A stretch of DNA of 64,000 nucleotides, taken from Nitrospirota bacterium (GTDB taxonomy: Bacteria > Nitrospirota > Thermodesulfovibrionia > Thermodesulfovibrionales > Dissulfurispiraceae). The translations under genes were made by a program, and so were the position numbers. The stretch's first letter is position 1, and every line of letters starts with the position of its first letter. The stretch is taken from assembly GCA_963710375.1 (NCBI GenBank), contig CAVPZX010000004.1, forward strand, positions 224,001 through 288,000, read 5' to 3'. The notes under the pieces are model-generated. The model had not been told where the DNA came from. It ran no database searches and saw only the letters and a program-made list of their open reading frames with translations. Positions 16,935 to 55,370 of the stretch are shown here, piece by piece.

Positions 16935-17321
16935 ATGGCGCAGAAGAAGAGAGTCGGCAAGAAAGTCAAGAAGCATATTGCAAACGGCACTGCTCATATA
17001 CAGACTACTTTTAACAATACGATTATCACTATAACCGATACCACTGGCAATGTTATTGCCTGGTCAAGTGCGGGAAGTCTCGGATTCAAGGGGTCGCGGA
17101 AGGGCACGCCTTTTGCCGCTCAGATAGCATCCGAGACAGCAGCCAAAAAGGCCATGGAAGTGGGCCTCAGGCAGGTTGACGTGTTCGTCAAAGGTCCGGG
17201 GGCTGGAAGAGAGACGGCAATCAGGGCCTTGCAAGCGGCGGGACTGGAAATTACGCTGATTAAGGATGTTACCCCGGTGCCCCATAACGGTTGCAGGCCG
17301 CCTAAAAGGAGGAGAGTGTAA
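16935..17321 (+). CDS. rpsK: 30S ribosomal protein S11
   Basis: [26 protein letters not shown]. Confidence 0.98.
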
Positions 17322-18078: not shown

Positions 18079-19086
18079 ATGGATCTTGTAAAAAAAGGCT
18101 TTCAACTGCCTCAAAAGATTATTTTTGAAGAAGAGACCCTTACGGATTATTATGGAAAGCTTGTTGCCGAGCCGCTTGAGCGTGGATATGGAACGACCAT
18201 TGGTAATTCGCTTCGCAGGGTTTTGCTTTCCTCGATAGAAGGTGCGGCTGTTACCGGAATCAGGATGCCCGGTGTCTTGCATGAGTTTTCTGCCATAAAA
18301 TCAGTAAAAGAAGATGTTGTTGACATTGTGCTTAATGTAAAAAAGCTTAGGTTCAAGGTGTACTCAGAAGGAACAAGTATTGTTTCGATAAAGGTAAAAG
18401 GGCCCAAAGTGGTTACCGCCGCTGATATAGAGACTGATGCCAATGTCGAGGTCTTGAATAACGACTGTTATATTGCAACGGTAGACAACAATGCCACATT
18501 CGAGATGGAATTGTATGTCAGGAAGGGCAAGGGCTATGTGGCCGCAGAGTTAAATAAGGAGCAAGATCTGCCGATTGATGTGATTGCGGTGGATTCCATT
18601 TACAGTCCAGTAAAGAAGGTGAATTTCTGGGTTGAAAAAGCGAGGGTTGGACGTTCGACTGATTATGACCGGCTTGTATTGGAGCTATGGACTGATAGTG
18701 GTATAACTCCTGAAAAGGCGGTCAGCGATGCTGCTTCAATATTGATGGACCACCTCGACCTGTTTATTTTTCTTGAGGAGGAAAATATTACTGAAGAGTC
18801 ACCCCGGACAGCAGCCGTTGTTGACTTGACAAGAATATCTAATGAGAACCTGCTGAAGAGCATTGATGAGCTTGAACTATCAGTTAGGTCGTATAATTGC
18901 CTGAAAAATGCTAATATCAAGACCATTTCCGATCTTGTGCAAAGGACCGAACATGAAATGCTCAAGACCAAGAATTTCGGCCGTAAGTCACTCAATGAAA
19001 TAAAGAATATCCTTAATTCGATGGGATTGAGTTTCGGCATGCGGATTGATATGAATGAGTTTGAAGGCAGTGCTTCAAAATCTTAG
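18079..19086 (+). CDS. rpoA: RNA polymerase alpha subunit
   Basis: [40 protein letters not shown]. Confidence 0.98.
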
Positions 19087-19104
19087 AGGAGGTACTGAGC
19101 AACG

Positions 19105-19506
19105 ATGAACCATAAAGTCGCAGGCAGGCATTTTGGAAGAACGGCGAACCAGAGAAAGGCATTACTCCGCGGCCTCGTATCGTCTCTTTTTGAGCACCAG
19201 AGAATCGAAACAACACTCGCGAGGGCCAAGGCTATTAAAAGCATAGCTGAAGAGCTGGTAACCTTTGGCAAGCGTGGCGACCTTCATTCAAAAAGAATGG
19301 TGCTGTCCTATATACCTAACAGAACGGTGGTATCTAAGCTTTTTTCCGATATAGCCCCCAGATTTACCGATAAGAATGGCGGTTATTTAAGGATTGTGCA
19401 GACCCGGCAAAGGGTCAATGACCGTGCCCCTATGGCCATCGTAGAGTTTGTTGATTATGAAAATATCGCTCCCAAGAAAGAGGGTAAGGCTGAGGCGAAG
19501 AAATGA
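19105..19506 (+). CDS. rplQ: 50S ribosomal protein L17
   Basis: IETTLARAK, GGYLRI. Confidence 0.97.
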   Translation: MNHKVAGRHFGRTANQRKALLRGLVSSLFEHQRIETTLARAKAIKSIAEELVTFGKRGDLHSKRMVLSYIPNRTVVSKLFSDIAPRFTDKNGGYLRIVQTRQRVNDRAPMAIVEFVDYENIAPKKEGKAEAKK

Positions 19507-19637
19507 ATGATATCGTTATTGGTGCTCTCATCCTTGTTGTCTTGGTAATACTCCAGTTGTTCATATTCCCAAGACTTGGAGTTAACACCTGAATCGTGTC
19601 CCGCAAGGGTTCGGGGAAATCCAAAAAATGTAAATGA
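19503..19637 (+). CDS. Putative 44-aa single-TM selenoprotein (in-frame TGA 19590-19592); 29-aa peptide if TGA is a stop
   Basis: ATG overlaps rplQ stop (ATGA); MNDIVIGALILVVLVILQLFIFPRLGVNT-U-IVSRKGSGKSKKCK; hairpin after TGA; terminator follows the second stop. Confidence 0.55.
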
Positions 19638-19638
19638 G

Positions 19639-19662
19639 GCGGCCCATTCGGCCGCTTTTTTT
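19639..19662 (+). terminator. Rho-independent terminator ending the r-protein superoperon
   Basis: GCGGCC-CATTC-GGCCGC followed by T7. Confidence 0.85.
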
Positions 19663-19712
19663 ATGGCTTTTTTATGGCCATGAGTCCTAAGGCATAGGTT
19701 ATAATAACTATA

Positions 19713-19973
19713 ATGCAATTTGACGGTATTACGCTAATCGGATTAGTAGCAGCCGTGCTCACGACCTCATCATTGGTTCCCCAGGTGATAAAGACTTGGA
19801 AGCTGAAAGAGACGAGGGACATCTCTCTTTTGATGTTTATTTTCATGGGGGCCGGTTTGTTTCTGTGGATGATATATGGTTTTTTTTTGCACAACCTGCC
19901 GATTATTGCAGCAAACGGCGTATCTTTTACTTTTGTTTTGATAATCCTCTTCTTTAAAGCCAAATACGGGTAA
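19713..19973 (+). CDS. SemiSWEET/PQ-loop family transporter
   Basis: LTTSSLVPQVIKTWK..ETRDIS, LWMIYG, IIAAN; 3 TM. Confidence 0.9.
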   Translation: MQFDGITLIGLVAAVLTTSSLVPQVIKTWKLKETRDISLLMFIFMGAGLFLWMIYGFFLHNLPIIAANGVSFTFVLIILFFKAKYG

Positions 19974-20188: not shown

Positions 20189-21265
20189 ATGAAAGACGTG
20201 CAATATGTTGTGCTGAGAAAAGAGCAGTTTGACGGTTTTATTTCAAGGCTGTCAAAATTGCAGAAGGTAGTTGCGCCTGTATCCAGGGGGTACAATAATT
20301 TTTCCTTTGAAGAGGTAACCGCAGGGGACAGCGTAGCTCTTAAATATATTCCGACCATATTACCTCCTAAAAAATTTTTCATGCCTAGGCGTGAGACTCT
20401 GCTAGAGTTTGATACAAGCGAGGGACTGAATGCCCAGGCGGTTGTAGAATATGAAAAAATGACAATCTTCGGGGTCCATACCTGTGACCTTGCCGGAATC
20501 CAGTGCCTGAACATGGTATTTTCGGAGCGTCCCAGAGATTACAATTACCTAATGCACAAACGGAAAATAAATATCATTGGTTTGGAATGCAATGAATATT
20601 GCGATGAATATGCGAGCTGCGCTCTTGTGAACGCAAACATGCCCAGCGGCGGCTATGATCTGTTTTTTACCGATCTTGGTGACTGTTTCATTGTGCATAT
20701 TAATACCCAAATGGGGGAGGATATCATTGAGACAGCCAAGGTTTTTGAGAGCGCCGATACGACCCATCTGGAAGAATTGGCCGGATTGAGGAAAAGGAAA
20801 AGGGCCCTTTTCAGGAATGAAGTCCCTGTTGAGTCGAGATATATACCGGAGCTTTTTGACCGGTCTTATAATAGCGGTGTGTGGGATGAGTTGAATGAAA
20901 GATGTCTGGCATGCGGGAACTGCACGAATGTTTGCCCGACATGCTATTGTTTTGATATAAAAGATGAAATGAACCTGGACCTCAAGACAGGAACGCGATA
21001 CAGGGTATGGGATTCTTGTCAGCTTGAGACATTTGCCAAGATAGCGGGAGGAGAAAATTTCAGAAAGGAACGCTCCTTAAGACAGAAGCACCGTTATTAC
21101 CGAAAATTCAGATATCCGGTTGACAGGTTTTCAAGATTTTTTTGTACGGGGTGCGGCAGGTGCAGCCGTACCTGCATGGCAGGCATTAGGCTTAAGGACA
21201 CCCTGAATACTTTAATAGAAGAGTTTGAGGGGACGGTCAGCACTATAATGAAGGGGAACTATTAG
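20189..21265 (+). CDS. Group 3b [NiFe]-hydrogenase/sulfhydrogenase beta subunit (AsrA-like 4Fe-4S)
   Basis: CLACGNCTNVCPTCYCF, R.WDSC, CTGCGRCSRTC. Confidence 0.88.
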   Translation: MKDVQYVVLRKEQFDGFISRLSKLQKVVAPVSRGYNNFSFEEVTAGDSVALKYIPTILPPKKFFMPRRETLLEFDTSEGLNAQAVVEYEKMTIFGVHTCDLAGIQCLNMVFSERPRDYNYLMHKRKINIIGLECNEYCDEYASCALVNANMPSGGYDLFFTDLGDCFIVHINTQMGEDIIETAKVFESADTTHLEELAGLRKRKRALFRNEVPVESRYIPELFDRSYNSGVWDELNERCLACGNCTNVCPTCYCFDIKDEMNLDLKTGTRYRVWDSCQLETFAKIAGGENFRKERSLRQKHRYYRKFRYPVDRFSRFFCTGCGRCSRTCMAGIRLKDTLNTLIEEFEGTVSTIMKGNY

Positions 21266-21268
21266 GCT

Positions 21269-22108
21269 ATGAAAAAACTAGCTTTGGCAGAGTCTCGCTA
21301 TAACGTGAGAAAGGGTAAAATTGTTCGTACGAAACAGATGACAGCATATGAAAAGTTGTTCGAAATAGTACTGGAAGGAGCTGGAAGGCTCGACCACGAA
21401 CCAGGGCAGTTCATAATGCTGTCCCTGTTCGGTGTGGGCGAGATCCCCATATCCATATCTTCTTCTCCGACAAACGTCAGCGACTCTTTTGAGATATGCG
21501 TTAGGGCTGTCGGAAAGGTCACGAACGCCCTGCACAAACTGGAGGCTGGAGATGAGGTCGGTATCAGGGGGCCGTTAGGCAAAGGCTTTCCTATCAGAAT
21601 ATTTGAAGGGAATGACCTGTTAATTGTGGCTGGAGGGTTGGGTATAGCACCCTTGCGTTCTTTGATTAAGTATGTATTTGACAACCGGAGGGATTTTGGG
21701 AAAGTTCATATATTGCTGGGCTGCAAAAGCCCCAGTGATATACTTTTCTTTGACGAGATCGAACAATGGAATAAGCGAATGGATGTTCATTATGAATGTA
21801 CTGTAGACCGTGCCGTTCCGGAATGGCAGGGGCACGTAGGACTTATTACAACGCTTATACCTGGCGTTGACATTGAACCGGAAAGGACCTTTGCCGTAGT
21901 GGTCGGTCCGCCGGTCATGTATAAGTTTGTGATAAGGGAACTTCTGGCAAAGAACATACCCGGGCGTCAGATACTGTTATCCTTTGAGCGGCACATGAAA
22001 TGCGGCCTCGGTAAATGCGGTCACTGCCAGATTCAGCATGTATATGCCTGCCAGGATGGTCCGGTATTTAGTTACGAAGAAATCAAATATTTACAAGAGA
22101 CCTATTGA
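21269..22108 (+). CDS. Group 3b hydrogenase gamma subunit (FAD/NAD(P)-binding, 2Fe-2S)
   Basis: PGQF, RGPLG, AGGLGIAPLRS, MKCGLGKCGHCQ...CQDGPVF. Confidence 0.9.
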   Translation: MKKLALAESRYNVRKGKIVRTKQMTAYEKLFEIVLEGAGRLDHEPGQFIMLSLFGVGEIPISISSSPTNVSDSFEICVRAVGKVTNALHKLEAGDEVGIRGPLGKGFPIRIFEGNDLLIVAGGLGIAPLRSLIKYVFDNRRDFGKVHILLGCKSPSDILFFDEIEQWNKRMDVHYECTVDRAVPEWQGHVGLITTLIPGVDIEPERTFAVVVGPPVMYKFVIRELLAKNIPGRQILLSFERHMKCGLGKCGHCQIQHVYACQDGPVFSYEEIKYLQETY

Positions 22109-22109
22109 T

Positions 22110-22865
22110 ATGAAAAGACCGAGGGCGGCTTTTTTTGATTTTGCATGCTGTGAGGGGTGTCAGCTCCAGGTTGCCAACATGGGCGAGACGTTGCTGGATG
22201 TTCTGGACCTGGTCGATGTGGCGGAGTTCCGTGAGGTGATGTCCGAGCGTTGGGACGGCCCGCTTGATGTTGCAATAATTGAAGGTAGCATTACCAACCA
22301 GCATGCTGTTGAACGGATAAAACAGATACGGGACAGGGCGGTGGTACTGGTTGCATACGGCTCGTGCGCTACGATCGGAGGTGTGAACGGTATAAAAAAC
22401 GGCTTTGACCTTGAGGATATTCGGCGTTACGTTTACGGGGCTGACTACCGGTCCTTCCCCAGTGCAAAGACCCGGGCTGTGCACCAGGTGGTGCGGGTTG
22501 ATTATTTCGTAAACGGATGTCCGGTCTATATACCTGAATTTGTTGGGGTGCTGAAAGCGATCTTGAAGGGCATAGCCTATAATGTTCCCGATTACGCTGT
22601 TTGCGTGGAATGCAAAATGAATGAAAATGTCTGCATGTACGACAGGGGAGTGACCTGCCTTGGGCCGGTAACAAAGGCCGGTTGCAATTCGTGGTGCATT
22701 AATAATGGAAATATATGCTACGGCTGCAGGGGAATGCTGAGTAAGCCGAACGAGAAGGGAGCACAGGATGTGCTACGCAAGTACGGCATTCCTCTGGATA
22801 TGGTCATCAAGAAGATGGACATGTACAACGTTTGCAGGGAGTTGGATAAGAATGAACAAGCGTAG
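22110..22865 (+). CDS. [NiFe]-hydrogenase small (delta) subunit
   Basis: CCEGC, EGS, GSCA..GG, GCP, CLGPVT.AGC, CYGCRG. Confidence 0.9.
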   Translation: MKRPRAAFFDFACCEGCQLQVANMGETLLDVLDLVDVAEFREVMSERWDGPLDVAIIEGSITNQHAVERIKQIRDRAVVLVAYGSCATIGGVNGIKNGFDLEDIRRYVYGADYRSFPSAKTRAVHQVVRVDYFVNGCPVYIPEFVGVLKAILKGIAYNVPDYAVCVECKMNENVCMYDRGVTCLGPVTKAGCNSWCINNGNICYGCRGMLSKPNEKGAQDVLRKYGIPLDMVIKKMDMYNVCRELDKNEQA

Positions 22866-24189
22866 CGTGAATATCAATGTGGAATATTTAACAAGAGTCG
22901 AGGGACACGGCAATATCGTGGTCAACGTGAAAGAGGGAAGGATGGAGGCCTGCCGACTCGATATTGTCGAGGCTCCGCGTTTTTTTGAAGGTATCCTCAG
23001 GGGGCGGTCAGTTTTCGAAGCCCAGCACATTACATCACGGATATGCGGCATCTGCTCCTGCGGACACACGCTGGCGTCGATCCAGGCTGCCGAGGACGCG
23101 CTGGGGATTACTCCCTCTGACCAGACGGTGAGGCTGAGAAAACTCCTTCTGCATTTAGAGATGCTCGACAGCCACATTCTGCATATTTACCTACTTGCGG
23201 CACCCGATTTGCTGGGTGTTAAAAGTTTTGTACCGATGATTGACAGTCATTCAAAGGTTGTCCGCAGGGCTTTAAGGATGAAGAAGACCTGCAATGAAGT
23301 TTGTACCATACTGGTGGGCCGCCATGTTCATCCCATATCCGCCATAGTGGGCGGTTTTACAAAACTACCCGGCGAGCCTGACCTCGATGACATGCTTGAC
23401 CTACTGCGGGGAATGAGACCTGACATTAATGCTACAGTCGAGCTGGCGGCCTCGCTGAAATTTCCGGAATTTGAACGCGATACAGAATATGTTGCATTGG
23501 TCAGTGATGATGGCGAATACCCGTTCCTTATGGGCGATATCGGCTCGACGGACGGCGTCAGAATGAACAAGCGGGATTATAGGAAGGCGACCAATGAATT
23601 TATCGTGGCCCACTCTTCTGCAAAACATACAAAACTTAGCCGGGATTCATACGCAGTGGGCTCCCTTGCGCGATTTAACCTGAATTATGAAAAACTTCAT
23701 CCCAAAGCCAGGAATGTTGCCGCTGCCATAAACCTCAAGCCGAAGTGCATCAATCCTTACCTGAATACAGCAGCACAGCTTATTGAATCGGTACACTGTC
23801 TCGAAGAAGCTATCGGGATATTGGAATATTTTAAGAGTCATGGCATTAATTACGATGAAGTAATGCTAGTCGGGTTGAATGAACAATCGAAGATTCCGGT
23901 AAAGGCCGGCAGCGGGGTGGGCGCCGTGGAAGTGCCGCGCGGCGTGCTGTTCCATCAATACGATATAGATGAAAAGGGCGTTATAATAAATGCCAACTGC
24001 ATTATCCCCACAAACCAGAACCTCAACAATATTGAGCGTGATATGGTGAAACTTGTTCCGGAAATTATTACCGGAACTGATGACGAAATAACGCTTGGCC
24101 TCGAGATGCTGGTAAGGGCATACGACCCGTGCATCTCCTGCTCAACGCATATGCTGAATGTGGAATTCAAAAACCGTGCGGCACTATAA
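22852..24189 (+). CDS. [NiFe]-hydrogenase large (alpha) subunit, group 3b-type
   Basis: TRVEGHG, L1 RICGICS, L2 DPCISCSTH plus C-terminal extension. Confidence 0.93.
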   Translation: MNKRSVNINVEYLTRVEGHGNIVVNVKEGRMEACRLDIVEAPRFFEGILRGRSVFEAQHITSRICGICSCGHTLASIQAAEDALGITPSDQTVRLRKLLLHLEMLDSHILHIYLLAAPDLLGVKSFVPMIDSHSKVVRRALRMKKTCNEVCTILVGRHVHPISAIVGGFTKLPGEPDLDDMLDLLRGMRPDINATVELAASLKFPEFERDTEYVALVSDDGEYPFLMGDIGSTDGVRMNKRDYRKATNEFIVAHSSAKHTKLSRDSYAVGSLARFNLNYEKLHPKARNVAAAINLKPKCINPYLNTAAQLIESVHCLEEAIGILEYFKSHGINYDEVMLVGLNEQSKIPVKAGSGVGAVEVPRGVLFHQYDIDEKGVIINANCIIPTNQNLNNIERDMVKLVPEIITGTDDEITLGLEMLVRAYDPCISCSTHMLNVEFKNRAAL

Positions 24190-55272: not shown

Positions 55273-55370
55273 TGGCGGGAGCGTGTGGGAATCGAACCCA
55301 CCCTGCCGGTTTGTGGCCGGCAACACTGGATTTGAAGTCCAGGAGGGACACCAGAACCCTATGCACTCCC
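55273..55370 (-). tRNA. selC: tRNA-Sec (anticodon TCA)
   Basis: 98 nt; anticodon loop CTTCAAA, long variable arm TGCCGG/CCGGCA, GTGGG-TTCGATT-CCCAC T arm, GCCA end. Confidence 0.93.

Follow-up and report, generated by a model that had tools for sequence, protein, structure and literature searches.

The window, by which we mean the whole stretch of 64,000 nucleotides that was analysed, carries a small gene which starts within the end of rplQ and whose frame can be read through an in-frame TGA codon. The features of this locus, together with the tRNA-Sec gene present in the same window, are as follows.

19105-19506, plus strand: rplQ (ribosomal protein L17), the upstream gene (TIGR00059, 131 bits; PF01196)
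19503-19637, plus strand: small gene of 44 codons when read through the TGA (U30, C43), ending with the TGA at 19635-19637
19506-19577, plus strand: predicted single membrane helix, residues 2-25 (AlphaFold2; charge asymmetry)
19590-19592, plus strand: in-frame TGA, putative selenocysteine (Sec) codon, residue 30 (conservation of the TGA; TGC and TGT in genomes G628 and G636)
19607-19622, plus strand: conserved SECIS-type hairpin, GGGTT-CGGGGA-AATCC (covariation in two registers; fit to a model)
19629-19631, plus strand: Cys43 codon (U+13), candidate partner of Sec, nearly invariant in alignment A1
19636-19668, plus strand: intrinsic-terminator-like hairpin and T tract, 3' of the second stop
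55273-55370, minus strand: tRNA-Sec gene, selC (ARAGORN, anticodon TCA)

A previous sequence-only reading of this DNA had proposed that a membrane peptide of 44 residues is made here, in which residue 30 is Sec and a Cys lies close to the C-terminus, and the sequence-based checks described below supported this core of the proposal. The layout that it had described was also recovered: the rplQ stop codon shares nucleotides with the ATG at 19503 (ATGA at 19503-19506), this ATG begins a run of 29 codons, after which come the first TGA, the tail IVSRKGSGKSKKCK and then the second TGA, and selC lies inside the window, on the minus strand. The terminator had been placed after the second and not after the first stop, in agreement with the terminator-like stem found at 19636-19658, whose core begins at 19638 and which is followed by a T tail (z = -3.98; none of 200 shuffles as stable).

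Beyond the terminator there is a SemiSWEET transporter gene (window 19713-19973) and, at 20189-24189, a four-gene cluster most like a NiFe hydrogenase of the sulfhydrogenase type, all four genes scoring below the curated cut-offs. A scan of 19300-19900 against Rfam returned three matches, all far below the gathering scores. In one metatranscriptome 0.06 of the words matched, and one metatranscriptome contig, about 90% alike, spans 18900-19629; its source is a relative, it could represent DNA, and neither a transcript nor a transcript end is visible in it.

The AlphaFold2 model of the window peptide consisted of one helix (residues 2-25) and a low-confidence tail, with a mean pLDDT of 71.7 and values of 92 and 87 over residues 1-20. 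The flanks are net negative at the start and net positive after the helix, and the side after the helix was the more positive one in 25/26, 44/50 and 14/14 sequences. This charge distribution predicts an N-out, C-in topology, which would place Sec at the cytoplasmic face of the membrane.

Conservation of the frame across the TGA

The read-through peptide was matched in 85 of the 101 genomes of the same order, the genome of the window included; the small gene had no match in the other 16, most of which have selA. A single in-frame TGA was present in 85 of the 86 order-level matches, the exception being the rplQ-linked copy of genome G002, in which TGT stands at the site and the frame, after a short tandem duplication, stops early. 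This copy is found at L009 / L068 (G002:C117, about 17080-17211), and the same genome bears a second, intact TGA copy on C102. A sample of the phylum gave matches in 71/301 genomes, all from one class, the window's own, and these counts, like those of the order, come from kin that are not independent and are to be read as conservation and not as separate events. For three matches of this sample no stop had been listed; they break off at residue 29, and TGA is the next codon.

Coding conservation after the TGA, which had been put forward as a check, was present: the tail is open, and the codon-position entropy in 32 sequences was 0.82, 0.75 and 1.50 for the first, second and third positions, the third positions being twice as variable as the other two. 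Both TGC and TGT are in use for Cys43, and all three stop codons (TAA, TGA and TAG) occur at the end of the frame. The in-frame UGA is conserved, with coding conservation on both sides of it.

A species-level genome collection was scanned with a DNA pattern for the end of the helix, in which the next codon was left unspecified. At least 120 matches were obtained and TGA was the next codon in 119 of the 120 listed, a figure to be read knowing that the pattern is biased to TGA-type sequences, because many Cys forms differ at its fixed positions. The one match with another codon (GTT and then a stop, with no hydrophobic lead) was dropped as chance. Neither TAA nor TAG, the codons which the sequence-only reading had named as evidence against itself, occurred at the site in any of the 120 matches listed. 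According to the record titles of 80 of these matches, they belong to Desulfobacterota, Nitrospirota, Acidobacteriota, Planctomycetota, Myxococcota-type, Chloroflexota, Armatimonadota, Spirochaetota and Deferribacteres.

A start codon was located 10-16 codons 5' of the conserved Trp in all 119 wide loci listed. The tails of all 119 are open for at least 14 codons, as compared with 71 and 68 when the other two frames are read and with a mean of 74 and a maximum of 89 of 119 in 500 shuffles. Cys stands at U+5 in 80/119 of these tails and somewhere in 115/119, the other four having none; the spacing between Sec and Cys is variable, with U+5 in most phyla, about U+8, and U+13 in the window. The window group and the wide family aligned with an hhalign probability of 99.1. 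The full profile scan gave 1777 clusters (50% identity) at E up to 0.001, and the family occurs in cultured genera, as Geobacter and Geomobilimonas records and, in the Cys form, in Gimesia and Thermogutta. None of 13 candidates from viral contigs was confirmed, and the ESM Atlas, searched for a natural Cys homolog, gave one unnamed cluster at 0.89, which we take as a lead only.

When the order-level profile was compared with protein databases, 85 of the 87 homologs ended at the Sec site, as would be expected if the gene stopped at the TGA and encoded a 29-residue membrane peptide followed by an untranslated tail; the failure to find selA in this assembly also fits such a gene. However, the database records are gene-caller products, which stop at TGA by rule, TAA and TAG were absent from the pattern matches listed, the tail is conserved by codon position and includes a SECIS-type hairpin, and homologs with Cys exist. 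We regard a gene ending at the TGA as extremely improbable.

Cys homologs were common in the protein databases. Among the best 120 of 417 matches of the wide profile, C was at the site in 101 (100 of them CxxxxC) and W in 8, whereas 9 ended there and 2 were unparsed; in 130 new ids from the full profile scan, C was at the site in 103 and W in 18. The database W at this position is read here as a TGA probably translated under code 4. The search for Cys or TGA at the aligned site, another check that had been suggested, showed a near-invariant TGA on the one hand and abundant CxxxxC homologs on the other.

Sec machinery and the SECIS-type hairpin

The selA and selB genes were each found in 95 of the 101 genomes of the order. 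Fifty of the 119 wide loci were picked for breadth and their 49 host genomes were tested for the machinery: selA was found in 44, selB in three of the other five and tRNA-Sec in the last two. The expectation that TGA forms are confined to genomes with Sec machinery was thus borne out in 49/49 hosts tested, which have selA, selB or tRNA-Sec; the exception is the order-level genome G008 (74% complete), which has the TGA form but in which neither selA nor selB was found.

In a sample of 281 genomes of Planctomycetota, the phylum of G343 (locus titled Pirellulaceae), 207 gave a match to selA and 26 a match to the small gene. TGA was present in 23 of the matches, 22 of them in genomes with selA and one in a genome with selB, and the match of G615 ended at residue 29. 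In G628 (TGC) and G636 (TGT) there is a Cys at the Sec site, followed by xxxxC. Both are single-contig genomes in which selA and selB were not found, and the top four matches to the tRNA-Sec model checked in them were Ser or Leu tRNAs. Taken alone, the association of TGA with the machinery is modest in this sample because 74% of the phylum has selA; the stronger point is that both Cys forms fall among the 74 selA-negative genomes.

The genome of the window contains selB, selC and a TGA-bearing selD, and selA was not found in its assembly. Nor was selA found in five of 100 relatives, four of which belong to the genus of the window (G002, G004, G008 and G009, 74-90% complete). In G007, selA lies in a block of ~22 kb (G007:C4:1546250-1567868) that also contains folD, together with what were read as hdrABC, folE and mnmG; in the genome of the window this block has no orthologous counterpart, its right flank falling at the end of contig C2. 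folD was found in only one of the five genomes in which selA was not found (G000, G002, G004, G008 and G009). Most contigs of this genome (ends C2-C6 and C9) finish in copies of one repeat of ~1 kb, and the breaks in the assembly are attributed to these copies. The missing selA likely reflects an assembly gap; given the four further selA-negative genomes, a real loss in the genus may have taken place. A gene for a small selenoprotein with a dual CXXC motif (NF041197), with one TGA and a score over the cut-off, was observed at G000:C2:659470-659628, minus strand.

The hairpin CCCG-CAAGGGTT-CGGG (19600-19615), which had been proposed as the SECIS element, can be drawn in the window but was not conserved across relatives, since 62.5% of the cells were paired and 88 of 500 shuffles reached as high a value; it was rejected as SECIS. 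The conserved stem pairs alignment columns 24-28 with 34-38 (86.9% of cells paired), and its covariation score was reached by none of 500 shuffles, which ignore relatedness and do not yield probabilities. An alternative register, 24-28 with 35-39, had 74.4% of cells paired and is the one used in the genus of the window. In the window this hairpin has a stem of 5 bp and the loop CGGGGA, with G at loop position 2. Its loop starts 19 nt after the UGA, which removes the weakness formerly seen in a short UGA-to-loop spacing (about 13 nt).

The bSECIS consensus, as given in the accessible text of PMC13188914, has a loop of 3-9 nt, an upper stem of 4-16 bp, a G in the first two loop positions, a distance of 16-37 nt after the UGA and an energy of -7.5 kcal/mol or lower. 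The window hairpin is within the loop, stem, G and spacing ranges. The fold energies obtained were -6.8 (19590-19640) and -6.1 (19593-19632), in folds other than the SECIS and against the consensus limit of -7.5, and the 51-nt stretch of the window alone was no more stable than shuffles (z = +0.83); most wide-family examples shown do reach this energy limit. A stricter scripted model, with a stem of at least 5 pairs and a loop starting with G and then G or U, fitted 40/50 order-level and 109/119 wide sequences listed, as compared with means of 3.8 (of 50) and 13.0 (of 119) after synonymous recoding and with 60 of the 870 TGAs that end long frames in this genome. RNAalifold found no consensus pairs in 32 sequences, probably because the two stem registers were mixed. 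A loose SECIS-motif search of this genome returned 143 mostly chance matches, in which selD and the small gene were recovered.

From the comparisons of sequences described so far, we consider it highly probable that selenocysteine is inserted at the TGA at 19590-19592, and this conserved gene very likely encodes a micro-selenoprotein.

Gene neighbourhoods and possible function

The coupling of the small gene to rplQ, originally read from the window, is true within this order but is not a trait of the whole family. The gene was directly behind rplQ in 26 of 30 loci (the best 30 of 40 rplQ matches), whereas among 80 wide loci (named records with long flanks) rplQ was a neighbour only in Nitrospirota records and in one weak cluster member, with ArsR, rhodanese/YgaP and other genes elsewhere. 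In two genomes of one family of the order (L308 in G034 and L313 in G082) the gene follows a tpiA-secG-like pair, the names being read from the sequences; an ammonium-transporter-like gene, named in the same way, was seen 3' of it in G034. Positions behind rplQ and secG could indicate that the selenoprotein is a partner of the translation or secretion machinery, but the rplQ link is as restricted as just described, and a gene not found in 16/101 relatives is not needed for translation, so that we hold such a partnership to be quite improbable. The simplest reading of the rplQ link would be steady expression from a housekeeping operon.

The neighbours found outside the order, in the 119 loci listed, were FmdB-type zinc ribbons (18), ArsR (16), rhodanese/YgaP (13), ECF sigma factors with an anti-sigma (10), DUF302 (7), thioredoxin (6) and RND efflux (5). 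One or another of ArsR, rhodanese/YgaP, thioredoxin, DUF302 and FmdB-type genes was within 1.5 kb in 32/80 loci, as compared with 1.6% of random positions in a control drawn from this genome only. The same set, with the addition of a CoA-disulfide-reductase/rhodanese type and Usp, was found in 70 further loci (parsed of 73), which are highly redundant and 47 of which, out of the 73, had been fetched by the Cys motif. In G636 the gene order is TauE, metallo-beta-lactamase/rhodanese, the peptide, a flavoprotein (read as SQR-like), DsrE and TsdA. One clean fusion to thioredoxin was found (P0332, a single-contig record); two other such fusions, also in single-contig records, look like frameshift artefacts. 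There are no sulfur genes among the neighbours of the window's own copy.

Two arrangements were observed repeatedly at the wide loci. In ten of them (L111, L126, L127, L128, L137, L152, L168, L174, L187 and L190) the tail read after the TGA and an ECF sigma gene have about 35-44 nt in common; the seven with titles are Desulfobacterota-type, and a zf-HC2 anti-sigma gene comes next in seven. Directly 5' of Cys forms, in 12 redundant loci, there is a 72-residue membrane protein with a Cys-rich motif (L263:3760-3975), located between thioredoxin genes and with no Pfam match.

The motif, the gene context and the thioredoxin fusion favour a membrane-tethered role in thiol or sulfane-sulfur redox chemistry, and we give slightly better than even chances to a 44-residue membrane selenoprotein whose Sec/Cys redox pair would serve thiol or sulfane-sulfur balance. 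The main rival to this role is metal sensing, in which Sec and Cys would serve an ArsR-controlled efflux as membrane-located ligands or sensors of soft metals or metalloids. The ArsR (16/119) and RND efflux (5/119) genes beside the loci listed agree with it, as do an HMA-domain permease of the ArsP type next to one scanned locus and the link between CC/CU motifs and heavy metals made in the accessible part of Haft and Gwadz (10.1101/2022.07.06.499078). However, the CU motif is absent from the peptide, the ArsR family also includes the persulfide sensors SqrR/BigR (PMC9774250, accessible text), and the presence of rhodanese/YgaP, thioredoxin, CoA-disulfide-reductase/rhodanese, TauE, DsrE and TsdA genes nearby suggests sulfur chemistry, which makes metal sensing unlikely in our view.

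A selenium-sensing regulator, in which readthrough of the UGA would couple translation to the next gene, was also considered, because at some loci the tail runs up to or into the following gene, for example an ECF sigma gene in 10/119 of those listed. In the window, however, a terminator follows the second stop, and the Cys forms keep the helix and CxxxxC without any UGA, which implies that the peptide itself is under selection; such a regulator seems very improbable.

According to the redox proposal, ribosomes ending rplQ would restart at the ATGA overlap, and SelB on the hairpin 19 nt downstream would bring Sec to the UGA; without selenium, the 29-residue helix would be released. Sec and the downstream Cys would constitute a redox pair on the cytoplasmic face: sulfane sulfur would be transferred to the Se, or the Se would become oxidised, after which resolution would fall to the second Cys (at U+5 in most phyla and at U+13 in the window) and recycling probably to thioredoxin. 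In this order, its place at the tail of a housekeeping operon (that of rplQ, or of tpiA-secG in one family) would give the gene a steady level of expression.

A more tentative proposal, to which we assign somewhat less than even chances, is that a large undescribed family of membrane micro-selenoproteins, extending over at least eight phyla and hidden as 29-residue truncations, acts on the inner side of the membrane as a thioredoxin-recycled selenium redox switch for reactive sulfur, which would here be wired to the ribosomal superoperon. If true, a selenium redox function would be tied to ribosome synthesis in this order. The family would be a widespread addition to the bacterial selenoproteome, apparently outside the catalogue of 119 families (May 2026) and NCBIfam 20.0, in a form not in that catalogue (44 residues, one predicted membrane helix and the UxxxxC motif). 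The annotation of the TGA forms, which databases give either as records truncated at residue 29 or with a Trp in place of the TGA, would have to be corrected. As the family is large and occurs in cultured genera, Sec insertion and function are directly testable.

Comparison with known families and systems

The sequence-only reading had recognised no named family, and the searches agreed with it, since all NCBIfam and Pfam models were below cut-off for the window peptide and its homologs. With NCBIfam 20.0 the best E was 0.025-0.03 over 50 read-through members and 14 Cys forms, none above cut-off; in Pfam, 0/12 Cys forms were matched and the window forms had no match. The weak NCBIfam matches to ATP synthase b, TatA and YldA were set aside as generic helix matches.

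Table 1 of the selenoprotein catalogue of 119 families (May 2026; PMC13188914) contains no UxxxxC membrane peptide. A description of the family was not found in the literature searched, including the accessible parts of PMC12013277 (deep-Sep), PMC13326102 (BSepDB) and PMC13745706 (SelCysML), and no such family appears in the accessible part of Haft and Gwadz 2022 (10.1101/2022.07.06.499078). A UxxxxC motif was not met with selenoproteins in the largely open-access literature searched, and the family may have been described before.

Other small selenoproteins (NF041197, NF033934 or KCU-star/DUF466, SaoC and selenobacteriocin) are likewise short and often truncated or missed in annotation, according to the accessible text of PMC13188914, but their models did not match the window peptide. 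YgaP/DUF2892 (PF11127), a frequent neighbour, resembles the product of the small gene in its small size, its membrane location and a Cys that comes after the helix; homology was rejected at an hhalign probability of 8.8 with a three-sequence YgaP alignment. The Cys form of G636 sits in a cluster of the type of the sqr-pdo-rhodanese sulfide oxidation clusters (PMC9163753), whereas the window copy is outside any such cluster and the abstract of that paper names no such peptide.

A close comparison is with the redox selenoproteins that bear a Sec/Cys pair (UxxC, CxxU; PMC13188914, Table 1). Unlike them, the product described here is a small peptide without a thioredoxin fold, for which one membrane helix and a low-confidence tail are predicted, and its UxxxxC motif (U-x12-C in the window) is absent from the motifs of that table; it shares with them the in-frame UGA, the downstream SECIS, the Cys homologs and a nearby second Cys.
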